The notes under the pieces are model-generated. The model did no database searches and was not told where the DNA came from. It saw only the letters and a program-made list of their open reading frames with translations. Made by a program: the position numbers and the translations under genes. Positions 25,821-52,270 of a DNA stretch of 64,000 nucleotides are shown here, piece after piece. This stretch comes from Candidatus Latescibacterota bacterium (GTDB lineage: Bacteria; Latescibacterota; UBA2968; SICM01). Position 1 is the stretch's first letter; each line of letters begins with the position of its first letter. The stretch covers positions 160,001 through 224,000 of the forward strand of contig CBDCJO010000002.1 of the NCBI GenBank assembly GCA_965217865.1, read 5' to 3'.

Positions 25821-28800
25821 ATGAATACAACCAGATACAGCCATCCCTCCTCAAGTGTGTTGCGCGCATGCCTGTTCGCATTGGTCTGTCTCACCTTCTC
25901 GTCTGTCGGGGGATATGCTTCTCCTCAGCCATCGGAAGCCGACAACGTGCATTTTTGCCGACCCCTCGATTTTGAAGAAACGAGAGACCGCGATAGCTCC
26001 TATGCCGCTCGCAAGCAGGCGTTTGACTTGAATGTTGGGGAACCCCGCACCGTACGGATGATCTACTTCTTGCCCAATGACCGCCCGTTTCGCGCAGAAG
26101 TGGTTCAGCGGATGAAAGATGAGATTCGCCAGATTCAGGCCTTCTATGCAGAACAGATGCAGGCGCACGGATACGGGAACAAAACCTTCCGCATTGAAAC
26201 GGATGCGCAGGGCGAGCCGATGGTTCATCACGTGGATGGTCAACACCCCGATAGTCACTATCTTGACAACACATTCCAGGCTATGAATGACGAGATTGAA
26301 CAGGTGTTTGATCGTGATGCGAACATTTACTTCACCGTCATTGACAATAGTATAGATGGAATTCGTACTGGGCGTGTTTGGAATGCGGGAGGAACAGGAG
26401 GCGACCGGGGAAAAAATGCTGGCTTTGTGTTGGTTCCTGGGGGATTTAGCTTCAGGACGGCGGCACATGAACTTGGACATGCTTTCAGATTGAAGCACGA
26501 TTTCAACGATGATACGTACATCATGTCGTATGGCGGCGGCCAGCGACGCTCTCTATCTGCGTGCAATGCCGAATTTTTGGCTGTGCATCCCTACTTCGAT
26601 CCCAGTGTTGAAGCGCAAGAAGCTCCGCCGCCGACAATCGAACTCATTTCACAGACCGGCTATCCGGCAGGCTCAAGAAGCGTCTCCGTTCAACTCGAAG
26701 TCAGCGACCCGGAAGGACTTCACCAAGTGCTCCTGTTCGTTAGAACAAGAGAAACACACTACGCCGCCGGATCGCTTGAAGTGAAGGCGTGTCGTGGATT
26801 GAAGGGCGCAAGAGAAGCCGTCGTTGAATTTGATTATAACGGTGTTATCCCATCTGATGGTTTGACGAGTCTTTCCAACCCTGACGCGCATCCGATTCAT
26901 GTCGAGGCCGTTGATACGGATGGGAATGTGGGCTATGCGTATTTTACCCTTGTGAAAATTTCGCCACAACATATCGCCACCCTGGGGGGGCATACGCGTT
27001 TTGTCCGATCTGTTGCGTTTTCACCCGATGGCACGACCCTCGCTTCGGGGTCACAGGATAGCACAGTCAAGCTGTGGAATGTTGCGACACGAACAAATAT
27101 CGCCACCCTGGGACACACGCATTTGGTTCGTTCTGTGGCATTTTCACCCGACGGAACAACCCTCGCTTCAGGGTCGAATGATGAAGCAGTTAAGCTGTGG
27201 GACATTGCGACACGAACAAACATCGCCACCCTTGAGGGGCATACGCGTGTTGTCCGATCTGTTGCGTTTTCACCCGATGGCACAACACTCGCTTCAGGGG
27301 CAGCGAGCGAAATCAAGCTATGGGACGTGGCGACAGGACGCAATATCGCCACCCTTGGGCATCCGTATATTGTCGACGCTGTTGCGTTCTCGCCCGATGG
27401 AACAACGCTCGCTTCAGGATCGGATGATGAAACGGTCAAGCTGTGGGACATTGCAACGCGAACAAATATCGCTACCCTGGAGGGGCATAAGTCCTGGGTC
27501 AATTCGGTGTCGTTTTCACCCGACGGGACAACGCTCGCTTCAGGATCGGATGATGAAACGGTCAAGCTGTGGGACATTGCAACGCGAACAAATATCGCCA
27601 CCCTTGAGGGGCATAAGTCTTCTGTCCGTTCTGTTGCGTTCTCGCCCAATGGCACGACCCTCGCTTCGGGGTCACGGGATAACGCTTCAGGGTCATTGGA
27701 TAACACGGTCAAGCTGTGGGACGTGGCGACGGGACAAAATATCGCGACTTATAGGCATAGGGATAAGCATTCTGGTCAGGTGCAATCTGTCTATTCTGTA
27801 GCGTTTTCACCCAATGGCACGACCCTCGCCTCGGGGGCAGGGTCTTGGGATGGGAATGGCACGGTCATTCTGTGGGATGTATCTGGGCGGTTACGACCCC
27901 GTCCTCGAACGCTTGTGAAAATCTCAGGCGACAACCAGCAGGGCACGCCCGGTGCCGCGTTGTCGAACCCCATGGTCGTTGAAGTGAACGATCAGTACGA
28001 TCATCCCTTACCGGGTGCGCAAATCATGTTTACGGTCACCGCGGGCGAGGGGAGGCTCAGCGGGAGATTCACTGTCGAGCACGCAAAGACCGGTGCCAAC
28101 GGCAGAGCAGAGAACACTCTGACACTTGGGAGCATTCCGGGGCCGAACACCGTTGAGGTATCTGTCACTGGACTTGAGCCTGTGACCTTCAACGCTGTGG
28201 GAGTTGGAACGTCCACCACATCAATCATGGGTGGTGATTATCGGACATGGCATTTACCCGATGGCGCAATAATCCGCCTGGGAAAAGGACGCATTGGTGA
28301 GGGCGACAGGGCAGTGGCGTTTTCGCCGGATGGTCAACGCCTCGCCGTGGCAAGTGGTATCGGTGTCTGGCTTTACGATGTGGCGACCTCTCGTGAACTC
28401 GCGCTATTCACCGGACACACGGGTGATGTCAGGACCGTGGCGTTCTCTCCCAATGGCACGATGCTGGCTTCCGGGTCTTATAATCACACAGGGTCACGAG
28501 ATAGTGGTACGCTCAATCTGTGGAACGTGGCGACAGGAGAAAATATCGCCACCCTTGGGGGGTACAACCGCACTTGGCGGGAGTCTGTCCAGTCTGTGGC
28601 GTTCTCACCCGACGGCACAACACTCGCCTCGGGGTCTCATGGTGATATCAAGCTATGGGACGTAGCGACACGGACAAATATCGCCACCCTTGAGGAGCAT
28701 ACGGAGTGGGTCTTTTCTGTGGCATTTTCACCCGATGGCACAACACTCGCCTCGGGATCACAGGACCGCACGGTTAAACTGTGGGATGTGGCGACGCGAA

Positions 28801-29318
28801 CAAATACCGCTACCCTGAGGCATGGGACTGGGGACGAGGGCATCATCCGTTCTGTTGCGTTCTCACCCGACGGCACAACACTCGCCTCGGGAGCGTGGGC
28901 TAAAACGGTCAAACTGTGGAACGTGACGACAGGAGAAAATATCGCCACACTAAAGCATCATACGTATAATGTCGAGGCCGTGGCGTTTTCACCCGATGGG
29001 ACGACACTCGCTTCAGGGTCTTATGATGATGTCAACCTATGGGACGTAGCGACGGGAGTAAATATCGCCACCCTTGCACATACGAGTACGGCTTTTTCTG
29101 TGGCGTTCTCACCAGACGGCACAATGCTCGCTGCAGGATTACGGGATGATGGAACGGTCAGACTATGGAATTTCACAACACAAAACATCGCCATACTAAG
29201 GCATAGTACCAGGGTTGAATCTGTTGCGTTTTCACCCGATTCCAGTACATTCGGTTTGAAAAGGAAAACGCTCAATGCGTTGGATTCTCGGGCGGGCCGC
29301 TATATCTTATGTCCGTGA
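25821..29318 (+). CDS. secreted Zn-metalloprotease + WD40 beta-propeller + Ig-like protein; both termini chimeric
   Basis: HELGHAFRLKH; many VAFSPDGTTLASGS..TVKLW repeats; LVKISGDNQ Ig-like module. The repeat breaks off at ~29240. Confidence 0.85.
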   Translation: MNTTRYSHPSSSVLRACLFALVCLTFSSVGGYASPQPSEADNVHFCRPLDFEETRDRDSSYAARKQAFDLNVGEPRTVRMIYFLPNDRPFRAEVVQRMKDEIRQIQAFYAEQMQAHGYGNKTFRIETDAQGEPMVHHVDGQHPDSHYLDNTFQAMNDEIEQVFDRDANIYFTVIDNSIDGIRTGRVWNAGGTGGDRGKNAGFVLVPGGFSFRTAAHELGHAFRLKHDFNDDTYIMSYGGGQRRSLSACNAEFLAVHPYFDPSVEAQEAPPPTIELISQTGYPAGSRSVSVQLEVSDPEGLHQVLLFVRTRETHYAAGSLEVKACRGLKGAREAVVEFDYNGVIPSDGLTSLSNPDAHPIHVEAVDTDGNVGYAYFTLVKISPQHIATLGGHTRFVRSVAFSPDGTTLASGSQDSTVKLWNVATRTNIATLGHTHLVRSVAFSPDGTTLASGSNDEAVKLWDIATRTNIATLEGHTRVVRSVAFSPDGTTLASGAASEIKLWDVATGRNIATLGHPYIVDAVAFSPDGTTLASGSDDETVKLWDIATRTNIATLEGHKSWVNSVSFSPDGTTLASGSDDETVKLWDIATRTNIATLEGHKSSVRSVAFSPNGTTLASGSRDNASGSLDNTVKLWDVATGQNIATYRHRDKHSGQVQSVYSVAFSPNGTTLASGAGSWDGNGTVILWDVSGRLRPRPRTLVKISGDNQQGTPGAALSNPMVVEVNDQYDHPLPGAQIMFTVTAGEGRLSGRFTVEHAKTGANGRAENTLTLGSIPGPNTVEVSVTGLEPVTFNAVGVGTSTTSIMGGDYRTWHLPDGAIIRLGKGRIGEGDRAVAFSPDGQRLAVASGIGVWLYDVATSRELALFTGHTGDVRTVAFSPNGTMLASGSYNHTGSRDSGTLNLWNVATGENIATLGGYNRTWRESVQSVAFSPDGTTLASGSHGDIKLWDVATRTNIATLEEHTEWVFSVAFSPDGTTLASGSQDRTVKLWDVATRTNTATLRHGTGDEGIIRSVAFSPDGTTLASGAWAKTVKLWNVTTGENIATLKHHTYNVEAVAFSPDGTTLASGSYDDVNLWDVATGVNIATLAHTSTAFSVAFSPDGTMLAAGLRDDGTVRLWNFTTQNIAILRHSTRVESVAFSPDSSTFGLKRKTLNALDSRAGRYILCP

Positions 29319-33956: not shown

Positions 33957-35378
33957 ATGCAAAAATCCGTTCTTCGTCTCACCTCACCAATCAGATTGAG
34001 GGCTTGCCTTTTCGCGTTGACCGGTTTCTTCCTCTCCCCGATGTTTGTCAGCCATGCTTCTCCACAGCCGGCAAATGATGTGCATTTCTGCCTGCCCCTC
34101 GATTTTGAAGAAATGAGAGAGAGCGATAGTCTCTATGCTGCTCGCAAGCAGGCGTTTGACTTGAACGTTGGCGAATCCCGCACCGTGCGGATGATCTACT
34201 TCCTGCCCAATGACCGTCCGTTTCGCGCAGAAGTGGTTGATTCGATGAAAGTTGAGATTCGCCAGATTCAGACCTTCTACGGCGAACAGATGCAGGCGCA
34301 CGGATACGGGAACAAAACCTTCCGCTTTGAAACCGATGTGCAGGGCGTGCCGATGATTCATCGCGTGGATGGTCAACACCCCGACAGTCATTATCTTGAC
34401 CTCACATTTCCGGCTATGTATGACGAGCTTGAACAGGCGTTTGATCTCCGTGCGAACATTTACCTCCTTGTCATTGATAATAGTGGTGGAATTGATATTG
34501 GTTCTCGGCGTGTGGGAGGAATAGGAGGCGCCCGGGGAAAAAATGCTGGCTTTGCGTTGGTTCATGGGGGATTCGGCTTCAAAACGGCGGCCCATGAACT
34601 TGGACATGCCTTCGGATTGCAGCACGATTTCAACGATCACCCGTACTTCGATGAACCGTACATCATGTCATATGGCAACAGCCAACGATACTCTCTATCT
34701 GCGTGCAATGCCGAATTTTTGGCTGTGCACCCCTACTTCAATCCCAGTGTTGAAGCGCAAGAAGCGCCACCGCCGGCAATCGAACTCATTTCACAGACTG
34801 GCTATCCGGCAGGCTCGAGAAACGTCACCGTTCAACTCGAAGTCAGCGACCCGGAGGGACTTCACCAGGTGCTCCTGTTCGTTAGAACAAGAGAATTCCA
34901 GGCCGCCGGATCGCCTGAAGTGAAAGCGTGTCATGGATTGGCGGGTGCAAGAGATGCCGTCGTTGAATTTGATTATGACGGTGTCATTCCGTCTTATGAC
35001 TTGACGAGTCTTTCCAACCCTAACGCGCATCCCATTCATGTCCAGGCCGTTGATACTGACGGGAATGTTGGGCGGGTGCGTTTTAACCTCTGGGAAATTT
35101 CGCTACAACATATCGCCACCCTTAGGCATACAAATTGGAAGGATGAACCACTCCTTGCATCCCTTACGGCAGCGTCTGTACATGGCACCGTCGCGACAGG
35201 CGAATGGGCTGGACAACGGATCCGTCGTCGCTGGTCGATCCAAAGGAAGGAATCCGGGGCGGATCCCTCTGGGTCTCATCCCGTATTCTCTCATTTGAAA
35301 TGCCCCTTTTTGATGGCCTTTTGTTTTTTTTCACATTTCAACTATAGGCAAAATCAAGAAAAATTTACGCTTGTATAG
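33957..35378 (+). pseudogene. secreted Zn-metalloprotease paralogue of 25821, truncated at the start of its WD40 region
   Basis: Signal peptide, HELGHAFGLQH, YIMSY Met-turn; homology stops at ~35135. Confidence 0.8.
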
Positions 35379-39879: not shown

Positions 39880-39959
39880 TGTCTTTTGCCCTTTAACAAG
39901 GATTTTTTATTCGGCGGAAGATAACCGGGGCCACCTTGCAAATGCCGCCTAACGATTTC

Positions 39960-41929
39960 TATATTGAGTAAAGGAGGAAAAAAACAGCGTTGAGGGGCTG
40001 AATCTTCCCTTGCAAGGCAAGGTGTCTTAAGATTCGGCAAGCGCAAGCAAACTCAACCCTCAACGCTGGAGGTATACGATGAAGTCGAAAATCTTCCACC
40101 TTAAACGACAGGCCATCTCCCAGAATTTCGTCCTCGGGATCGATCCGGGCAAGGAAAAACACAGCGGGTCGGTGCTCGATCCCTCCGGACTTCAGCAAGG
40201 CGGGGCCTTCTCATTCCCCGTGACGCGAGCGGGATATGACCATACCCTCTGGCAGCATCTGGAGCGACGCATCAAAGATTGCGGGCCGGATCGGATGGTG
40301 GTGGCCATCGAGACGTCCTGCAATCTGTGGGTTACCCTGGCCCACTACCTCCAGGGGAAGGGGTATCGCGTGCTGCTGGTGAGCCCCCTCACGACGTATC
40401 ACGCAAGACCGATGATGCACCGCGATTTCTCCAAGTCGGATCCCAGGGATGCCTTTCTGGTGGCCGACAGCGCACAGAAGGGAAGCTATGATCTCTTCAG
40501 GACGTTCGAGCCTCACATGGAGGCCGCGCACCAGCTCTCAATCGCCTACGACAAGCTCCGGAAGGACCTCACAAAGTCCCTGCTCCGCACCCGGTCTCTG
40601 ATGGAACGCGTCTTCCCGGAGTTCCTCCACGCGGTCAACATTCGTACGAAGACCTCCCGCTACCTGTTGGAGCGATATTTCTTGCCCCGCCACTTCGAGG
40701 AAATTGACATCGAAGAGGAGGGCCTCCAGATCCATCGGATCTCAAGAGGCAGTTACGGGGTGGCGACGCTGCAGAAGCTGAAGGAGGAGGGCCCGGACCT
40801 CCATCGGGATCCCGGTCGAGGGCCAGGAAGATGTCCTCCGCATCATCCTGAATGGCTGGATCGAGGCGCTCCGGCGGACCGAGACGCAACTCAAAGCTGT
40901 GGAGCAGGCGATGATCGCCCGCACTCAGCAGGATCCGACTTTCCAAATCGTCGACTCGATCCCCAACATCAACAAAAACCTGGCTGCCCAATTTACCGCG
41001 GAGACGCGAGGGGCCACCCACTTCAAACAGATCGAGAAGCTCGCCGGCACGAACGTGCGCATCGCCGACTCCGGAAAGTACAAAGGCAAAAGGCGGATGA
41101 GCAAGATCGGCAATCCCCGGCTGCGGCGAATCATCTACCAGATGACCGAACAGACCGCCCGGGTCGTGCCCCAGGTCCGCCGCCGCTTCCTCGAACGCGA
41201 GCTCAGGAAGAAGTGCTACCGCAAGAATATCGTGGCCGCCTCGTCCCAGCTCCTACGGCTCATCGTAGCCCTGCTCAGAGAAAATCGTCTCTACGAGGAG
41301 AGAGACCACCCCGCGGCATCCCTCAAAACGCTCGAGAGGCGCTACATGAAGCGCTACAAGAAAAAGCAGCATCCCCGACGGCGCGCTCGCGCCGCCGCCT
41401 GACCGCTGCCGCGGTCACACTCGCTCTTTGACTTCGCTGCTCGATTCACACCCGGTGCAGTCTCCTGCCGGACCGGTTACACAAGCTGCCGCCTTCCAAG
41501 GCGGCCAGGGGCGGCCTGCAGAACTGGCTTGAGAGGAGGGCTCCGATAGGAGTCGCTTCGGCTAACAGATCCGCAGGCCTCCCCGTCTTCCTGGATCGGA
41601 TTAGAAAATGCGCGAAGACCGGCACACCTACTCACACAAACAAGAGTGCCGGCCGCGGATGTAAGTTGGTATCGGAAGACACCACCCCCCACACGGGAGC
41701 TTCGCCCCTCTTCAAAGACCGGTCCTGCACCATAAGGGCGAACTGCGCTCCGAACATAGTAAGAATGTCCACTTTACACCCCTTGACGCTGAGAAAACCG
41801 GCATAAAAAATCTCATCCAACCTCGAAATCGTCAACTTTGCTCTTGACTTTCCGCATGTAGTCTGTCCACTCCCGAAGAGGCCGTGCATAGGAAACGCAA
41901 TCAGTGGTTTTAGAATCGGTCAACCTTTA
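39960..41929 (+). mobile_element. IS110/IS1111-family element; transposase 40079..41402 frameshifted near 40790
   Basis: LGIDPGK, AIETS, KSDPRDA (DEDD) and SGKYKGKRRMSKIGN; TA at both junctions; ~525-nt 3' non-coding end. Confidence 0.85.
41585..41652 (+). ncRNA. candidate target-guide module of an IS110/IS1111 seek/bridge RNA
   Basis: Stems GTCTTC/GAAGAC and CGGCAC/GTGCCG; their loops contain TTAGAAA and ACTCAC, matching the two flanks of the insertion site. Confidence 0.5.
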
Positions 41930-42016
41930 ACTCACGGCCTTTTCGGTCGAGCGAAGCGAGCCGGGAGTGGGCTGTTAGGCGAAGTGCCGGCCCGGGGTGG
42001 GGTGGGCTTGGCAGTA

Positions 42017-42338
42017 TGGACTTGACCCGGTTTGGTGGATACCTTATTACTTGGCAGAAAGGAGGATGCCACGATGCCGAGGCCACATCCGCCGTATCCG
42101 CCGGAGTTCAAGCGGCAGATGTTAGAGTTAGTGCGAGCGGGTCGCACGCCTCATGAGTTGTCCCGTGAGTTCGAGCCGTCCGCCCAGGCGATCCGGAACT
42201 GGATGTGGCAGGCCGATCTGGATGCGGGCCGCCGCAGTGATGGTCTGACCACCGAAGAGCGGGAGGAGATCAGACGCCTACGCCGCGAGAATAGGCAGTT
42301 GCGACAGGAGCGGGAGATCCTTGCAAAAACCGCGGCCT
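42017..42338 (+). mobile_element. IS3-family left end plus orfA, truncated
   Basis: TGGACTTGACCCGGTTT end as at 48263; MPRPHPPYPPEFKRQ. Confidence 0.85.
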
Positions 42339-42706
42339 GATGGAAGGTATGAAGCAAAGTATGATCTGGATGAAGATGGCATGATTGGGTTTGGGGATTT
42401 TCTGATCTTTGCCGGCGACTTCGGCAAGGAGATGTCATAACTTGCCCCGCCGGTGATTAGATACATCTGAATCACTACCGGCTAAAGCCGGCAGGTTTCT
42501 AAACTCAGCCGGGAAACTGTCTCACTATTATAGACACGGAGGGAAGCCTCGTTGGGGAACAGCCATCTCGTCCAGCTAAGTCCCATAACGCATATAACTG
42601 ACTTTTTTATATTGACTTATCACGATGCATAAGGATCTGTCCTGTCCCATACCGATCCGCTTAGACCCCTTGCATCCGCTAATCTGTGGTGGATATATTG
42701 GTAGGT

Positions 42707-43884
42707 ATGGCACTCCCCAAGCGACCCCCGCAACGCAAGCCGCGCAGACGGCATCCCAACAACGCCCTGACACCTGCCTTTGTGCGCAACGTGAGCCAGG
42801 CCGGACGCTATTGTGACGGCCAGGGCCTCTATCTCGATGTGCGGCTCTCGGGCAGCCGGGGCTGGATCCAGCGCCTCACGATCCGCGGCCGCCGAACCGA
42901 GCTCGGGCTCGGCGGATTCCCCCTAGTCTCGCTGAAGGAAGCCCGAGAGAAGGCGTTCGCCAACCGGAAGCTCGCCCGTGAGGGAGGCGATCCCCTGTCG
43001 GAGAAGCGGCGGGTCGAGTCGACGCCCACCTTCGCGGACGCGACCCGGCAGGTCTGGAAGCAGCTGCGGCCGGGCTGGCGCTCCCCCCAGCATGCGCAGC
43101 TCTGGCTGAGCAGCCTGGAGCGCTACGCTGTTCCTCGCATCGGGAAGATGCCGATTTCGGAGGTGACCAGTGCCGACGTGATCGGGATCCTCGCTCCGAT
43201 CTGGCACGACATGCCGCCCACGGCCCGGAAGTTGCGCCAGCGCATCCGCGCGGTCATGGAGTGGGCGGTGGCGATGGGTCTCAGGCCCGACAACCCGTGC
43301 GACCGGATCGGCCCGGTGCTCGGTTCGCAGGGGGGCGTCGTTCGACACATGCGGGCGTTGCCGCGCGGCCGGTCGTGAAGCTGGCATTCGAGTTCCTGGT
43401 GCTGACGGCGACACGCTCCGGCGAGGTGCGTGGGGCGCTCTGGACGGAGATCGACCGGGGCGAGGGTGCGTGGATCATCCCGGCCCGACGCACGAAGGCG
43501 GCGCGCGAGCACCGGGTCCCGCTGTGCCGGCGTGCGCTGGAGATCCTCGAGGAGGCGCGGGCGCTCGATCACGGCAGCCCGCTCGTGTTTCCAGGCCTGC
43601 GCAGAAACCCCATTGCGACCACAGCGCTATCGGAACTGCTCAGGGAGTTAAAGATCGCGGCTGTGCCGCACGGGTTCCGGTCGAGTTTCCGGGACTGGGC
43701 GGCCGAAGATACGGATCATCCCCGCGAGGTCGTGGAGGCGGCGCTGGCGCATGTCGTCCAGAACAAGGTCGAGGCCGCCTATCGGCGCACGGACCTGTTC
43801 GACCGGCGGCGCCGACTCATGGACGACTGGGCTGCGTACCTGGCGGGCGAGAGTCGAGACGGGGAGGGTGGACCGACCCGTTGA
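42707..43884 (+). pseudogene. P4-like tyrosine integrase with internal deletion/frameshift
   Basis: GRYCDGQGLYL..LGGFPLVSLKEAR arm domain; TATRSGE, HGFRSSFRDW, LAH, AY; break at ~43370. Confidence 0.88.
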
Positions 43885-44278
43885 TCCACCGCGATAGTCA
43901 CCGGCGCCCGACAGCCATACCGGAGCAAAGATGAACTTTCTCATTCGGCTACTTCATGCGGTTAGATCAGCTTGGTTCTTGGATACCGCCCAGGCGAACC
44001 GTCACGATTGCTCCCACCGCGACGCCCGTATCGAACTCGATCAGCCGACTCAAGGGTGTGTGACCCTCTGTGGCCCGGGTTCTCTCGGGAAATCCGCGAC
44101 AATCAAAGGCGTGACGACTGATCGGATGCGCAGAATCGCCACAGCCAAATCTGAGATTCGGGACAAATACTGTGGGAAACCAGAACTGTATGGGACGACG
44201 TGCTTGTTGCACTGACGCCCGGCCGGGAAGACACAACCTGTGGACTGGAACCATTCTTTAGTAGGAGGCGAAGGAACG

Positions 44279-45413
44279 ATGACAACGGAGACCGAGAACG
44301 GCGAAGAAGCCGGCAAACCGCAAACGAGCGGGCGCGTGAAGATTGAGTGGAACTGGGACCTTGACGATGAATGGCTAGAGATGAAGAGCATCGGGTCGGG
44401 GGATCAAAAGTATGTACTCGGAGAGGAAGGCCGCTCCAGGCTGAAAGGACGATGCAGACGCTGTTGGGGCGGACTCATCGGCAAGAGAGATGCCGGAGAC
44501 GAGCTCATGGCCATTCGGTGTCGCGTTTGCGACCTTCTGCTCGAAGGCGATGAGGCCAGGGAAGAGTATGAACGGATGTCGAAGGAGGGCGGATTGAACA
44601 CATTCGGCATGGTCCTTGGCATGCGGCCGAAGTATCGCGATGACGCGACGTTCGTTCAGAAGACCTTTCCATATATGGACCGACTATCCGCGGAGGAATT
44701 CAGTCAACGCGTCAGAGACGAAGAGCAAAAAGGACCCGAGAGGAATTGGCTAACCCGCAGTTCGTTTCCCGACGGATCCGCGGGATTCCTGGTCCTTGCA
44801 GGCGCGAGCGCTGATGTCCGGGGTCGAGCGACTCCCCAGAGAGTTGTCTGTGGTGCGTTTCTGGGACGTCGATACGCATGACGACAGCTCAGCAACGGTG
44901 CATATCCCCACGGAACAGCTGAGCGAGCATTCCAAGACTAGCGAAAAAGAACTGATGAAGAGGCTCGGTTCGATCATGACCATCGCCTTGATGTCCGCGT
45001 TCGCATGCGAGTTGGCGATGAAGGCGATATGTTTGACCCGCAGGTACAAAGCTCGGAAGAGCCATGACCTGTGGCAGCTGTACAGACACCTCCCGGAGGA
45101 CAGCAGGACGCGGATCGAAGAGGATTTTCCGGAAGTCGGTTCGGTGATGGAGGATGCACGCCACACCTTCGGCGAGTGGCGATACTTCGAGGTGGATGTC
45201 GGCGGTCACGGCATCAGCGCGATGATCGACACGGACCGGGCATTCTCTCTGGCAAAGGCGGCGCGTGTGCTTCTCGACGAGGCCGAGTTGATGGGGCTCG
45301 GATACTCGGTTCATATTGATGCGACGCAACGAATCGCCGAAACCGGCGACGGGCGACACATGCATGTGAGGCACAAACTGCACACTACGGCCAAAGAGGC
45401 CCCGCCACGGTGA
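44279..45413 (+). pseudogene. Zn-ribbon + HEPN-like protein, one frameshift near 44795
   Basis: CRRC...CRVC; SAFACELAMKA...KSHDLWQLY...FGEWRY. Confidence 0.6.
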
Positions 45414-46109
45414 TGCACAGTGCGAGTAGTCTAGCCCGCCGTCGCAACTACGGTCAGCGGGACATCCCCGTCGAGTCCGACTAAGCCCAGTACTATTGCC
45501 GCTAAGAACCTCAGCCAACGATTGCACACTGCACGGAATAATTGGGGGATTATACGGTTAGCTTGATAGCGTCCCGCTCGTTCCTCATCGGGGAGGCTAT
45601 TGGGGATGCACGACCAACTCAAGCCACTCGATTCCGCCACAAACAGGACAACTGATCTCCATGCCGGACCCTGTGGCGATGGCTTCGCATTTGATGCAGA
45701 AGAACGAGCCCTTATGCTCGCCGGACTCGTGAGACCCACCGAGCTTCTTATGATGGCGGATCCCGAACGTGATTCGCTCAAGCTCATCCATAAAGTCGCG
45801 TTGGAAGTCAGACAGGTCGGCACCCCAACGCTTTCGCAACTCTGCGACGTCTGCGGACAAGTCATCACGTAGGGCGGTGCGTTCGTGACTGGGGAGACGC
45901 TCAACTGCATCCCAAAGGACGCGTCGGGTGGCAACAAGAACGCCGCCTAGATTTCCCAAGATGACACCAGATGAGGTCGAGAGCTTGATCGCGATAAGTA
46001 ATCGACAGCGTCGTAGATTGCTGGAGTATGTACGGGGACCCGAGGCATGAGCCCACTTTAGCCCGGCTTGACGCTTGCGACAATTCCTCAACCTTGGTAA
46101 GCTCCAGCC

Positions 46110-46434
46110 GGTCTAACCGGGGAGTCCCAAGACTCTCTATAATTTCAGTCATTACTTCAAACCCATTTCCCGCGCTGATTTCTATCTTGACACCTTGCGG
46201 CACGGGACCCAGATCAGAGATTTCTTCCTGTAGCATCCGGTGATTGTCTTCATCGATTTCAATGAAGTAAAACCACACTTCACAGGTCCGAAGTATCCTG
46301 GAACTATAATCGTGGTTGAGAAAAGTTGATAACGCTACAATTGGAGAACCGGCTTCGCCCGTTTCATGACGCCCTCGTCCGGCATGGGTGTCGAGGTAGA
46401 CAATCCGCCCAGACCAAAGTGTCAGGATTGCCAT
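46110..46434 (-). pseudogene. three-Cys-motif partner (TcmP-like) fragment
   Basis: IVYLDTHAGRG...GSPIVAL...FYFIEID. Confidence 0.6.
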
Positions 46435-46518
46435 TCGAGTTTGGTACTCCGAACTGGGTCGAGAGACTCAAAAAAACCCAATACCTGATGGGTACAGGAG
46501 CTGATGAGAACTGGTCGG

Positions 46519-46682
46519 CCGGCCTTCGTTGAGCGCCGCAGAGAGTCAGGGCGGTTGCAAGTAGCTCACTTGTGTCGCCGGGGTATGCGCCCCGGCCTTC
46601 GTTGAGCGGAGGAGGCTGCCGGAGATGGAGTTAACGTCACCGCGTGTGTCGCCGGGGTATGCGCCCCGGCCTTCGTTGAGCG
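46519..46682 (+). CRISPR. orphan mini CRISPR array (2 full + 1 partial repeat, 2 spacers)
   Basis: 37-bp repeat GTGTCGCCGGGGTATGCGCCCCGGCCTTCGTTGAGCG at 46572 and 46646, 3' half at 46519; spacers 36 and 37 bp. Confidence 0.8.
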
Positions 46683-47154
46683 GTTACGAGTTCAGATCAT
46701 GATCCCGGCTGTCTGGAGAATGATCCACAGCCACGAAGACCCCACCGTAACCTGACCTTCTTTGGAATTGTTTAATGCGATACCAGCTACAATCAGCAAA
46801 ATGAAAGACAATGCCAATATGAGCGCTACGCGCTTACGACTTTTGAAGCCAATCGCCTTGATCGGATAGACAATGTTGACGACGGAAACGATTCCACCGG
46901 CAAGAGCTATCAGTACGAGTATCACCGCCAGTGATTGCATCGTTACGTATTTCCGATCTGCGTCACAGCCTCATTTCAGACCGTTTGCCGTAGCAAACGC
47001 CTTCGTCGTCGTCTCTAGTCGTCTCGCCTTGAGGATGTGCTTCGTGCTAGGGCCCATCGCTCGACTTACCGCTCACGAAGACCATTTATGTTATGTGGTC
47101 CCGGACCCTATTAATATCCTTCTTTCCCGTAGTCCGCCAGCATCGCCACTGCAC

Positions 47155-48045
47155 CGCCGTGTGGTTCCAGCACCGCTGCTGCCGGGTCTGTGGCCAGACC
47201 TGATTGACCGCGGACCAGATGCCCATATTGCCGTCGGCGACGACGAGAACAGGGTGGCTCAGGCCACGATCACGTAAGCCTCTGAGGACCTCCAGCCAGG
47301 ATTCGGTAGACTCCCTGTAGCCGGGCACCAGGGCGAGAACCTCTTTGCGGCCGTCGCTCGTGGCCCCGATGACGACCAGCAGGCACGCCTTATCCTTCTC
47401 GAGCCCGGCCTTGACGTAGATGCCGTCTGCCCAGGCGTAGACCAACTCGCGATCATCCAGGCGTCGTTCCTGCCAGGTTTGGTAGTCGGTTTCCCATTGG
47501 CCGCGGAGTCGGGCAATCGACGATGAAGACAACGGCGCCCCATCTCCGAGCAGACCCCGCAGGGCCAGCTCGAAGTCGCCTTGAGCCAGACCGTGCAGAT
47601 AAAGTTCTGGGAGCAGTTCTCCCACCTCTTTTGTGCGACGCGCGAACAAGGGCAGGATCCGGCTCTCGAAGCGCTCCTTCAATCCACGAACACGGGGCCG
47701 CTTGATCTTTATCGTGCCACAAGAGGTCGACAATCGGCGCAGCTTCCCGTAGCCGTTGCGATAACCGGGGGCCGCATCGACAGTTCCTTTACGCTCATAC
47801 CACCCCCGTCCCAGGAACTGGGTCACTTCTTCCTCGGCAATGGACTGGATGCGAACCTCGATCTCATCTCGAATCCACCCTTCCAGGGTCTCCCAGGTAG
47901 GGATGGACAAACACGGTGTGTCTGACGTATGTTTCTTCACGGCGATCCTCCTTCCCACCGGGCCAATCACCCGGCATCTTGTGGATATTTCTATCTCACC
48001 GGAAGTTTAGGGTCGCCTTCTCTCTTTTTCCACACCTTTCGAATG
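47155..48045 (-). mobile_element. IS256-family element, 3'-truncated
   Basis: GYRNGYG, YAWADGIY, ESTESW, VVADG, QRCWNH. Confidence 0.85.
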
Positions 48046-48049
48046 TAGC

Positions 48050-49745
48050 TCATCCCTTTTGTGGTTGCGCGACAACCTGCGTTTCCGCCGAAAAACTTAA
48101 ACGACAGTGGATAGGCATTGACGTATCACAAAAGGCTTATGACCTGGTTATAGAGCGGCTCAACAGGGAGGTTCCGCCAGATCTGTTCAAAGGTGTTCCT
48201 GTCTTCAGGGCCGATATACCCACACGAACAGATATACAACACAAGAAAGCGCCTACGTTAGATGGACTTGACCCGGTTTCGTGGATACCTTATTACTTGG
48301 CAGAAAGGAGGATGCTACGATGCCGAGGTCACATTCGCCGTATCCACCGGAGTTCAAGCGGCAGATTGTAGAACTGGTGCGAGCGGGTCGCACGCCCCAT
48401 GAGTTGTCCCGTGAGTTCGAGCCGTCGGCCCAGGCGATCCGGATCTGGATGCGGCAGGCCGATCTGGATGAGGGCCTCCGCAGTGACGGTCTGATCACCG
48501 AGGAGCGGGAGGAGATCAGACGACTGCGCCGCGAGAATAGGCAGTTGCGACAGGAGCGGGAGATCCTTGCAAAAGCCGCGGCCTGGTTCGCTCGGGAGAC
48601 CAACTCGGTGCCAGGGGAGTCTACGAGTTCGTGAAAGCCAATCAGGCCTTCTATAAAGTAGCCACGATGTGCCGGGTCCTGGAAGTCTCCACCAGTGGGT
48701 ACTACGCGTGGCTCAAGCGGCCGCTGTCGGCACGAGCGCAGGCCGATGTGGCTCTGACGGAACGGATCGTGAAGATTCACAAGTGTTCTGATGGCACCTA
48801 CGGTGTCCCGCGCATATACGAGGAGCTTGTAGCCGAGGGGGAGCGGATCGGTCGCAAGCGCGTTGCGCGGTTGATGCGTGCTGCAGGCCTGGAGGGCGTA
48901 AGTCGTCGCAAGCGGCATCGAACCACCTACCGTGATCGCGATGGGCGCGTCGCTGCTGACCTGGTCAATCGAGATTTCACGGCTAACGGGCCAGACCAGC
49001 TCTGGGTAGCCGACATCACTTACATCAGTACGTGGGCCGGCTTCCTGTATCTCGCGGTCGTTGTGGACGCCTGGAGCCGCCGCGTCGTTGGCTGGGCGAT
49101 GGCGACCCATCTGCGCGCCGAGCTGGTGCTCGAGGCGTTGAATATGGCGCTCTGGCAACGACAGCCGGAAGCCGTCATCCATCACTCCGACCAGGGATGT
49201 CAGTACACCTCCATTGCCTTCGGTCTACGGTGCCGCAAGGCCGGTGTCCGGCCCTCTATGGGCTCCACCGGTGACTGCTACGACAACGCGTTATGCGAGA
49301 GCTTCTTCGCCACGCTCGAATGCGAACGCCTGGATCGCCGAAACTACCGCACACAGGCCGAAGCTCGGATGTCCGTATTTCAATACATCGAGGGCTGGTA
49401 CAACTCCCATCGGCGACACTCAGCACTCGGATATCTCTCTCCCATGAACTTTGAGCAGACCTCCAGCGCTGTTGCCCATGAAGCCGAATGAATCGCAACT
49501 GATAAACCGTCCGCTAAACCGGGGTAACTCCAAGAGAGGACAAAAAGCATCTCTATGGAAGCCAAAGCGGAAATTGTGCAGGATGCAAACAACATTTCCC
49601 TGATATTCGAAACTTCGAAATTGACCACTACATACCTAAATCGAAAGGGGGAAGCCACGAATGGGACAACCTTCAACTCCTTTGCGGACACTGTAACCGC
49701 ACAAAAGGCGATCGCCCTATGGAATACCTGCGCGCGCTGATCAGT
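48050..49745 (+). pseudogene. C-terminal part of a DNA methyltransferase-HNH fusion, interrupted by IS3
   Basis: PFCGCATTCVSAEKLKRQWIGID before the IS; manual translation after it gives CAGC...EIDHYIPKSKGG...NLQLLCGHCNRTKG. Confidence 0.75.
48263..49532 (+). mobile_element. complete IS3-family element (orfA 48320..48634, orfB ~48631..49491)
   Basis: TG...CA ends with imperfect TIRs; 3-bp AGA duplication; WVADITY, HHSDQG, DNALCESFF. Confidence 0.93.
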
Positions 49746-49747
49746 CT

Positions 49748-50389
49748 CTATACAGCATCTGGCGGCAGCATGACGATCGTCGATGTCCCCAGCCGTGCGT
49801 TACCCCAATCGCAAGGTTCGAAGGTGTATGTCTCTTCCGGCTCTCCGATGGCCTGAACCGTGAGCATGAACCTTTTGAACTTGTCTACTCTCAAGCCTTC
49901 CTTACGCTGAAAGTACACCCAGCCTTTTATCCCTTTCCTGGCGGCAAGAACGATGCCGTCAACCTGTTCGATGTAACCGACGAAAGGATCCGGATGAAAC
50001 GCGAGGAACCTGCAACTCAGGCTTTCCAGGTCGGTCTCAGCTTCCAGTTCCAGCTTACTAAGCCTGGCCTCGACGTCAAGTCCGTTCTCGATTCTGACGT
50101 AGACTTCAACCCTTAGGCCATCCGGGCCGGAATAGCTGATCTGGCTCTGCTCTGGGTCTATCGTGGTTGGGATACGGGATACTGGAGGTTCGACTCGCTC
50201 ACTTTGCAGGGGAGGAACTTTGGTTTCAGTTGTGGTAGGGATCTTACAGCGATTTCTTTTCTTCCGATACTCGGACTGTGCAATATATCCGATCCAAACC
50301 AGCCCAATAGCTGGCATGATGAACTCATTCCAATCCCAAATGAAGTTGACAACTGGTTGCCAAGCACCTAAGAAGTCCAAGTCCCCCAA
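49748..50389 (-). CDS. hypothetical protein with N-terminal TM segment
   Basis: 213-aa ORF; hydrophobic segment followed by a basic patch. Confidence 0.55.
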   Translation of the reverse strand: MGDLDFLGAWQPVVNFIWDWNEFIMPAIGLVWIGYIAQSEYRKKRNRCKIPTTTETKVPPLQSERVEPPVSRIPTTIDPEQSQISYSGPDGLRVEVYVRIENGLDVEARLSKLELEAETDLESLSCRFLAFHPDPFVGYIEQVDGIVLAARKGIKGWVYFQRKEGLRVDKFKRFMLTVQAIGEPEETYTFEPCDWGNARLGTSTIVMLPPDAV

Positions 50390-50544
50390 TCTTTATGCCC
50401 TTCCAAGTCCAATGAATTATTTTCTGGAAAAAAGAAAGGGGCCAGAGTAGAAACGGGATCGAAAACAAGAACTTTCGCATCCCATCAATTTGGTCTCTCC
50501 TCCTTGTCGACGCCCATGAGCTGTAGGGCAGCAAGGATGGCGTT

Positions 50545-50745
50545 ATCACTCGTGGACCGGTCCTCTATCGGAGTGCGCACACTCGGAAAAACACAACGCC
50601 CCTGCCCGGTCAGAGGGTGCAGTTCGCTCAGGGATCTCTACCGATTGGCGAGAGAGGGGAACCAGATGCGGGGTGTCGGTCTTGGTGACGGTGTAACGCC
50701 ACTCGTCCACCTTTAAGTCGATATCCGACCATTCGGCCTTGCACA
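50545..50745 (-). pseudogene. tyrosine integrase internal fragment fused to an IS3 orfA scrap
   Basis: ELCKAEWSDIDL..W....TKTDTPHLVPLSRQ. Confidence 0.65.
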
Positions 50746-51334
50746 ACTCCTGGGGTGCGCGACCCACAGCAAACTCTACCATCTGCCGCTTGAACTCCGG
50801 CGGATACGGGCTAGTTCGTGTCCCAGAAGTTCCTTCCACACACAGCACCCCGAACGCTTCGTAAACGGCCCGCCTCGGCTTACCGCAATACCGACCGAAG
50901 TGTGGATCAACCAACCTCAGAACACCGTTGAATGCGAACGTATTCGTCAGTAACTTTCACGCGAGGCGTCTCATTCACCTTGATACGTTCCGCAGATGGA
51001 GGAAGTAGAAATCCGGTCAGAGTGCGCGGGATATCCCGTTGTGGCTTATGATGTCTATTTAGGCGAGTCTGCGGGAAAGAGTAGAGGATTATCAGCGAGG
51101 AAGGCCGTAACGAGAATGGTAGCGAGGTCACAATGACCGCTGGTAGTTCCACGCGTCCGCGCACTTTTCGCCTTCGACGATCAGCACCGTCCGTCCGTCG
51201 CCGGTCAGCGTCTCGACGCGGTACGGAAAGCGATGTCCGGGCATGCGATGCGCCCACGCCTCGCCTTGGCGTCGGCAGGGATCGGCCGGGGTAGACCGGC
51301 AGGGCAACGACAGGTTCGCGCGTAATCGTTCCCC

Positions 51335-51430
51335 GTCATGCCCCTCTACGTGGCCGAAGCCTGCTACAAATACAACAACCGGAAGAACACAGACGTGTTC
51401 GGGGCGTTCCTCAAGGGGTGCTTCGCGTAA
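51335..51430 (+). mobile_element. IS1595 C-terminal scrap
   Basis: MPLYVAEACYKYNNRK...FLKGCFA, matching 12545. Confidence 0.75.
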
Positions 51431-51833
51431 TCGTGGCAAATCTCGTCAATTCGGCATTAGGAAGTTCTTTTATCAACAGCTTGGTTCCTGATATTCTGAT
51501 ATTGAAATTATGATAGTCTCCCTTCTCGGATAGGGGAAGACGGCATTTGTTCTTGACAAATTGACTTATAGAACCAGAAAATATATTGATGGCGGTACTG
51601 TCCATGCAAGCTAAGACGATCATCCCTCCTTCGATCTGTTCGGTATCCATCATACTTTTCGGGATGGCATACCATGATGTAGATCCACCTAATATACACC
51701 AGTCCTTTCCAGACTTATCCTGTCTCCATATGTCACGCCCCTCAACTTTGCCACCAAGTTTGACACCAAAGTATTTTTCAACTTCGCAAATGACGACCCT
51801 TCGCTCATGCTTGCCAAACTGTTCAGTTGCCAT
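51411..51833 (-). CDS. AT-rich hypothetical protein
   Basis: ORF from MATEQFGK; convergent with the IS1595 scrap. Confidence 0.55.
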   Translation of the reverse strand: MATEQFGKHERRVVICEVEKYFGVKLGGKVEGRDIWRQDKSGKDWCILGGSTSWYAIPKSMMDTEQIEGGMIVLACMDSTAINIFSGSISQFVKNKCRLPLSEKGDYHNFNIRISGTKLLIKELPNAELTRFATITRSTP

Positions 51834-51971
51834 GCCACCATCCCCCCTTTTGTCTCCCGTATATTTATGCACTGCCCAAACTGGCACTGATCTTGCGTGT
51901 TCGTATTCGTGGTGTCTATGCGGTCATTCAGCTTGACATCCAGTTCGTCAATACGACCATTCAACTAGTCC

Positions 51972-52270
51972 TGGAGTTACCCCGGTTTAGCGGACGGTTT
52001 TATCAGTTGCGATTCAGTCGGCTGCAAGGGCGACATCGCTGGAGGTGTTCTCGAAGTTCATTGGAGAGAGATATCCGAGTGCTGAGTGTCGCCGATGGAG
52101 GTTGTACCAGCCCTCGATGTATTGAAATACGGACATCCGGGCTTCGGCCTGTGTGCGGTAGTTTCGGCGATCCAGGCGTTCGCATTCAAGCGTGGCGAAG
52201 AAGCTCTCGCATAACGCGTTGTCGTAGCAATCACCGATGGAACCCATAGAGGGCCGGACACCGGCCTTGC
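51972..52270 (-). mobile_element. IS3-family right-end fragment (same element type as 48263)
   Basis: TGGAGTTACCCCGGTTTAGCGGACGG end; DCYDNALCESFF. Confidence 0.85.

Follow-up and report, generated by a model that had tools for sequence, protein, structure and literature searches.

An IS110-family insertion sequence lies beside the crossover point of an attC site at positions 39955-41861 of the window, the 64,000-nucleotide stretch of DNA analysed here, and its predicted two-loop bridge RNA, located in the 3′ end of the element, probably selects the insertion site through two attC boxes separated by a variable spacer. The interruption of an attC-type site by an IS110-family element, proposed in the initial annotation, was confirmed. 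What the sequence itself shows is where the element ends, that its core is a single G, that it lies antisense at R′ and that four guide segments covary with DNA; the steps of the mechanism are inferred. The features are given below, with guides named after PMC11208158 and attC boxes and strands after PMC5027507.

38971-39879, minus strand: open reading frame of the next cassette, with a weak transglutaminase-like hit; it starts 74 nt after the R′ box, and its 3′ part overlaps a DUF772 transposase fragment.
39947-39953, plus strand: left target GCCTAAC, the attC R′ (crossover) box; the attC bottom strand is the plus strand of the window.
39954, plus strand: core, a single base G repeated at 41861, as seen from the junctions, the homologues and the rejoined copy C2:3466120.
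39955-40078, plus strand: left end, with the right donor ATTTCTAT (39955-39962), the -10 box TATATT (39960-39965) and a long hairpin (39985-40068) before the ribosome-binding site.
40079-41402, plus strand: IS110 recombinase gene (PF01548 and PF02371), 443 aa in intact copies.
41508-41706 (ends approximate), plus strand: predicted bridge RNA, with a closing stem, a target-binding loop and a donor-binding loop.
41524-41528, plus strand: distal 5-mer of the predicted right target guide, CTGGC; among homologues, the offset at which it matches the attC L′ box varies, and the match is weak in the element's own sites.
41561-41566, plus strand: predicted left target guide GCTAAC, in the same sense as the target TAAC.
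41600-41609, plus strand: predicted right donor guide; ATTAGAAAAT is the complement of the left end apart from a single bulged RNA base, and it includes TTAGAAA.
41611-41655, plus strand: variable stem-loop capping the donor loop; it contains ACTCAC and is not conserved.
41659-41663, plus strand: predicted left donor guide ATGTA, in the same sense as the right end.
41844-41861, plus strand: right end, with the -35 box TTGACT (41844-41849), the left donor ATGTA (41856-41860) and the core G (41861).
41862-41980, plus strand: rest of the interrupted 127-nt attC, comprising the spacer, the L′ arm from about 41866, a long terminal structure, the L″ arm and the R″ box GTTAGGC (41974-41980).

The ends were assigned from the junctions of other copies in the genome and from the read depth of contigs. 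Ten of the 12 left junctions in the genome read TAAC followed by GATTTCTAT (also quoted, from the genome-wide comparison of copies, as TAAC followed by GATTTCTATATTG), one has TCC before GATTTCTAT and one carries a 12-nt deletion. All ten right junctions of the genome copies are identical through CATGTAGT and diverge after 41862. The depth drops in independent DNA runs coincide with these ends: contig depth was 158-367 over 39954-41878 and 13 over 41879-41955 in run X1, and 27-95 and 0, respectively, in run X3. This indicates that GATTTC is located inside the element, that positions 41862-41929 are a part of attC, and that the TA repeated at both junctions of the boundaries proposed previously (39960-41929) is a coincidence. 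The target GATTTC-TA-ACTCAC, deduced from those boundaries, consists of the element's left end and a sequence situated 68 nt outside the element. The BLAST search with 39960-41929 against the genome yielded 18 hits, namely the element itself, six other near-full copies, one copy without the 5′ part and ten shorter pieces. Rejoining the flanks of copy C2:3466120 at one G produced an open frame extending 130 codons before and 133 codons after the joint (263 codons); a second copy, rejoined likewise, has no frame reaching far on both sides.

Joining the ends in silico generates a promoter, TTGACT-17 nt-TATATT, both boxes of which are kept in homologues. The element may excise or copy itself out as a circle, the junction of which would create this promoter for the recombinase and the RNA. 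No end-to-end circle joint was found among the contig joints of four DNA runs, contigs being prone to drop rare forms. Subterminal inverted repeats of 11-13 bp are absent, and the only resemblance, read from the junctions, is that of CTATAT and CTACAT (5/6). The hairpin 39985-40068 (CAGCGTTGAGGG/CCCTCAACGCTG), placed directly before the ribosome-binding site and kept in L038-L040 and L119, may regulate translation. In run X7, the element appears to occupy an attC that is empty in the source genome (G000) at C2:4232137 (one contig on each side), and its right junction in this run stops at 41857, four bases before the usual end.

The transposase copy in the window had been described as frameshifted, and the alignment of seven near-full copies bears this out: an additional base is present near 40789, and 9 nt are missing after 41014. 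The 443-aa frame is intact in four of the seven copies, and two others carry a different frameshift; an intact copy is found, for example, at G000:C2:1987485-1988816. The intact product exceeds the NCBIfam NF033542 cut-off; D22, E78, D121, D124 and S334 (the DEDD residues and the catalytic serine) are invariant across 49 homologues, and a structure model (pLDDT 91) has ISCro4 and IS621 as its top folds at about 20% identity. Scans for homologues gave loci from genomes (32) and from metagenomes (the best 80 of 169), at 38-89% identity. The proteins are mostly 420-460 aa long, the search being restricted to at least 420 aa, and their hosts include Nitrospirota, Bacteroidota, Ignavibacteriota, Calditrichota and others. 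Among 60 relatives of the source genome, a clade member occurs in one and cousins with 27% identity in three; the best plasmid relatives reach at most 28% identity. Six clade motifs (e.g., ETSCN, IDPGK and FPEYL) gave no match in the ISfinder-derived source file of PMC11187229. The relatives from G010, G018 and G052 (27% identity) served as an outgroup only, and no match to the 3′ RNA profile was found in them. Their loci (L120-L129) have a similar left end (GATTGCTATAAT), the target GCGGT and a shorter, different 3′ RNA.

To judge from the sequence around the junctions, insertion takes place at the crossover (R′) end of attC, in antisense to the cassettes, with a single-G core and one base from the G of GTT. 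In the target, an imperfect hairpin situated between co-oriented genes is closed by boxes of the RYYYAAC and GTTRRRY types. The true empty site of 127 nt folds at -27.9 kcal/mol, versus -14.1 kcal/mol for the 67-nt version of the initial annotation, and CACGGCC of the supposed right flank pairs within the stem of the 127-nt fold. A loose attC fold test was passed by 23 of the 40 homologue sites, some of them doubtfully. The left flanks contain the start of a minus-strand ORF within 200 nt of the R′ box in 22 of 35 cases and the end of a plus-strand ORF nearby in three of 35. L015, L018 and L113 have an extra-helical G, which, in the orientation of the element, belongs to the 3′ arm. The spacers found here are up to 8 nt long, whereas the usual unpaired spacer of attC is 5-6 nt (PMC5027507).

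The attC-like sites are scattered genome-wide in many small groups. Seven IS-free attC-like sites carry TAAC followed by GATTTC, the element's first six left-end bases (G000:C2:326259+, 1417144+, 2469512-, 2880899-, 4179153+, 4232137+ and 4315667-), and C2:4980442- has TAAC and then GTAGT, like the right end. Imprecise excision may have left the GATTTC-type sites as footprints, or they may form an attC subfamily of the host. A GAT spacer was found in none of the 16 rows of IS-free attC from homologue flanks, and L146 (G027), a relative without a detected copy, carries one GATTTC-type site. The integron integrase family TIGR02249 gave no match above the cut-off; a split, two-frame intI-like gene located beside cassettes (G000:C2:1657178-1657988 and upstream, L135) falls below it. 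The window also contains a WD40-type repeat array (25900-29300), a duplicated start of a metallopeptidase-like gene with about 90% identity (33957-35378) and a region dense in IS3, IS256 and phage-integrase remnants (42000-52000).

The 3′ non-coding end of the element is predicted to hold a bridge RNA with two ordinary internal loops. With the RNA profile, the 3′ motif was detected in 107 loci, some of them repeated entries of the source genome's copies; 25 loci gave no match, most of them truncated or distant. The structure was assessed on 48 distinct sequences from 71 with complete motifs. Its 41 pairs were formed in 87.7% of 1946 cells, compared to 72.1% in shuffled alignments and 36-50% when the structure was slid, with two-sided changes at 39 of the 41 pairs; these values lean towards the test alignment because the structure was drawn from the RNAalifold consensus and by eye. 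The window's own strand folds alike (z -3.0). The top-strand guide comes first in each loop, and the long non-coding region lies downstream of the gene. A bridge RNA upstream of the gene in relatives with a long left end was considered and rejected, as the RNA stays downstream there. No Rfam family was found in the window or in eight homologue loci. RNA runs X16, X17, X19 and X21 gave two short contigs each, covering the gene and the RNA region alike at a depth of 2-6, and no separate small RNA, with its ends or level, is visible in these contigs. One subclade (L013:4789-4902, L014:4774-4906, L093:417-560 and about 25 more loci) has a second structured element in its left end, 115-145 nt long, highly conserved and multi-stem, with possible pseudoknots GAGAT/ATCTC and GGCG/CGCC and no Rfam match. 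The target loop of L119 (G033), 53% identical, lacks both an inner stem-loop and the greater part of the right guide strand, and the element is still located at TAAC followed by G.

RNA-guided attC targeting with a guide RNA from the 3′ non-coding end was also suggested in the initial annotation, and this general idea holds, but none of its specifics does. The strings on which it was built exist at their places (TTAGAAA at 41601, ACTCAC at 41630 and 41930), but the stem GTCTTC/GAAGAC (41614-41619) is paired in 46.5% of cells against 45.2% in shuffled alignments, 112 of 500 shuffles being as high; GTCTTC pairs instead with the later GAAGAC at 41675-41680. The ACTCAC hairpin, presumed to be the second guide, is not conserved, a relative in run X1 has no counterpart of 41609-41651, the copy at 41930 marks no junction and matches by chance, and a random 68-nt stretch shares a 6-mer with this hairpin 17% of the time. 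The guides appear to be situated in two internal loops and not in two terminal ones. TTAGAAA, interpreted as a target guide, belongs to the predicted right donor guide, for the element's own left end, and the probable left target guide GCTAAC had been overlooked. The covariation expected between guides and targets in homologues is found for the bridge-RNA guides, including TTAGAAA in its donor role. That a target GATTTC-TA-ACTCAC is read by two terminal hairpin loops has, with its wrong boundaries, unsupported stem and unconserved loop, next to no probability. The novelty seen in such loops is replaced by a better supported one, a predicted right target guide acting at a variable distance.

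The homologues comprise about 100 loci of the 443-aa IS110 clade, most of which give one insertion site each; identical guide sets were merged, and L021 (misparsed) and the rows with a misread left donor guide were dropped. The predicted left target, right donor and left donor guides covary base for base with the DNA. Position -1 of the left target matches in 65 of 65 rows (52.1 in shuffles), position +3 of the right donor in 63 of 66 (28.2), and positions -2 and -4 of the left donor in 55 of 56 (26.7) and 56 of 56 (45.3), respectively. Left target positions -5 and -6 match poorly (37/65 and 18/65), and therefore this guide seems to read about four bases. On a quick protein tree, with the changes placed by eye, the change of the left target has about four independent origins (TAAT twice, TACA and TAAA), and that of the right donor about nine, with three mismatched rows.

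The 5′ strand of the target loop gave no strong signal at a fixed register, the best p-values being 0.015-0.036 among 24 tests, and the proximal five bases of the right guide match the target at the shuffled level. The distal five bases were first matched to the outer right flank by eye, and it is likely that they pair with the L′ box at a variable distance, 4-8 nt, from the core. When offsets of 4-9 were allowed, perfect 5-mers were found for 23 of 53 distinct guides (the source genome's copies, L119 and L021 left out) against 3.4 in shuffles, with just five at offset 5. Runs of at least five matches occur in 29 of 53 (5.6 in shuffles), in 18 of 40 (2.5) without the common GCTAA guide, and in one of 48 (1.9) in a control window. 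The matches are spread over six diagonals as 3, 3, 6, 6, 6 and 5; about eight rows are off by one base in the guide register, so this spread is inflated, and the corrected range is still 4-8. GCTAA is matched at offsets 5, 6, 7 and 8 in different elements, and L013/L087 and L074/L082 each show one guide at two offsets. Homologues in which the match is strong include L041, L111 and L094. The matched word is the start of the attC L′ arm in well-folded sites. The shuffles ignore relatedness and the host-specific attC consensus, which is addressed in part by swapping targets between sisters: in 24 hand-picked pairs, mostly near relatives, the own target was better in 15, worse in one and tied in eight, many ties stemming from shared guides. 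Guide and target covary also between the close relatives L101/L111, L062/L069 and L042/L043. The retargeted relatives L101, L111, L063 and L112 (TAAA, TACA) lie in or just after short REP-like hairpins and not in attC, and both of their target guides are changed to fit.

In the ten right flanks of the window's own element, CTGGC scores 30 against 25.9 expected (p 0.07), or 35 against 33.8 with wobble (p 0.36), and the closest relative, L038, has two of five matches. Such a weak match would suit an ordinary bridge system, where site selection rests on the left target guide and the core alone, the protein or the hairpin does the rest, and the right match is an adaptation to the host attC consensus or an accessory dispensable for insertion. 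The hairpin predicts the element's own sites better than the guide does: at least four Watson-Crick guide matches are present in two of the ten sites, and an attC-like hairpin in seven, versus 42 of the 857 TAACGT sites of the genome (by a crude test). One copy lies in a coding sequence without a hairpin. Half-match recombination has also been reported for IS621. The guides alone specify too little, and the attC hairpin probably adds specificity, by analogy with the stem-loop used by ISPpu10. However, covariation is seen between close relatives and outside attC; the right guide tracks the DNA and therefore must pair with it at some step. An ordinary system is considered quite unlikely.

In the mechanism that we prefer, the donor loop would bind ATGTA and ATTTCT on the two sides of the core. 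The target loop would pair with the strand that faces TAAC and, by its 5-nt guide, with the L′ box at a distance of 4-8 nt from the core, and the bases in between would remain unpaired in an opened duplex. Insertion would part L′ from R′ and inactivate the attC site. The same guides might act instead on the folded attC bottom strand, with the R and L boxes taken on the opposite arm at a fixed 5 nt, the longer arm looped out, one strand transferred and the product resolved by replication, as with the integron integrase. The element always reads along the bottom strand, hairpins are enriched at filled sites, and top-strand-only transfer has been reported for CazIS110 and IS621. At 17 partnered sites, the opposite arm measures 5 nt in nine and 3-5 nt in 16 (SD 1.0), compared to guide offsets of 4-8 (SD 1.7). 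However, this fixed R″-L″ arm is attC's own property and no independent evidence, and 25 of the 42 guide-matched sites have no inverted partner within 300 nt. The copy in the coding sequence does not fit the folded strand either, nor do the TAAA and TACA relatives, in which the matches, at offsets 4 and 7, are not accompanied by an attC stem; the fifth base of the left guide fits the duplex strand in about nine of ten sites with differing arms, a weak indication obtained by eye. The opened duplex with an unpaired spacer was put first because of the sites without a partner arm and the retargeted relatives at non-attC sites, and the folded strand is considered rather unlikely.

The element seems to represent a known kind of system, an RNA-guided IS110 with an attC target, in which the predicted variable-distance right target guide would be new. 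It shares with IS621 and ISCro4 the DEDD and serine recombinase fold (PMC11208160, PMC11208158; PDB 8wt6, 8wt9 and 9t56). Its predicted RNA and joined ends further resemble those described in the same two papers, with two internal loops, each with a bottom- and a top-strand guide, a right donor guide whose pairing is broken by unpaired RNA bases, and the circle-junction promoter. It differs in protein length (443 aa against 328-341 aa, at about 20% identity), in the RNA downstream of the gene, in the top-strand guide coming first, and in one conserved core base in place of CT; its right target guide is distal and of variable offset, whereas that of IS621 pairs next to the core (PMC11208160). 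The initial annotation pointed to an IS1111 subgroup that targets attC, the IS1111-attC group (ISKpn4, ISPst6, ISPa21 and ISPa25). The attC target, antisense insertion and 3′ non-coding region are indeed shared (PMC11187229, PMC3001079), as is the top-strand match preceding the bottom-strand match (PMC11187229), but those proteins have 330-350 aa and their elements possess the 11-13 bp subterminal repeats (PMC11187229). ISPa21 and ISPst6 are described as inserting near the 5′ end of attC (PMC3001079) and not at the 3′ (R′) end as here. The element is therefore not assigned to that group. In ISPpu10, target choice by an IS110 element likewise combines RNA pairing with a DNA stem-loop, but the target is REP, the core is CT, and no variable spacer is described in the opening part of that report (10.64898/2026.03.19.712850). 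The long elements of the IS110 subgroup (395-455 aa; PMC11187229) belong to the same size class, and a few share the 3′ non-coding region. In guide-calling as published, RNA columns are set against DNA positions that are fixed relative to the core (10.64898/2026.10.21.760802, section 2.4), by which a floating guide would be blurred. Neither this clade nor a guide with a variable spacer was found described in the literature surveyed, including PMC11213020, 10.64898/2026.08.14.744561, 10.64898/2026.08.31.748434 and 10.1101/2025.10.25.684509; most subscription journals, figures and bioRxiv supplements were outside the scope of the survey.

On a slight balance of probability, the long IS110 recombinases of a widespread clade read two words in their target, one of 4-5 nt at the cut and one of 5 nt that is freely spaced, 4-8 nt away. 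A single short RNA would in this way recognise the succession of box, spacer and box in attC, possibly on the folded single strand used by the integrase. Since the source genome contains intact copies, the claim is directly testable. Bridge recombinases are being turned into genome-editing tools, and a variable-distance guide, if true, would change the prediction of off-targets and widen the range of programmable targets. It would mean an RNA-guided recombinase with a gapped, perhaps structure-reading, target and a new way for programmable recombinases to read DNA. For insertion sequences that parasitise integron arrays, the element also reveals a separate route, leading to the crossover end of attC in many phyla.
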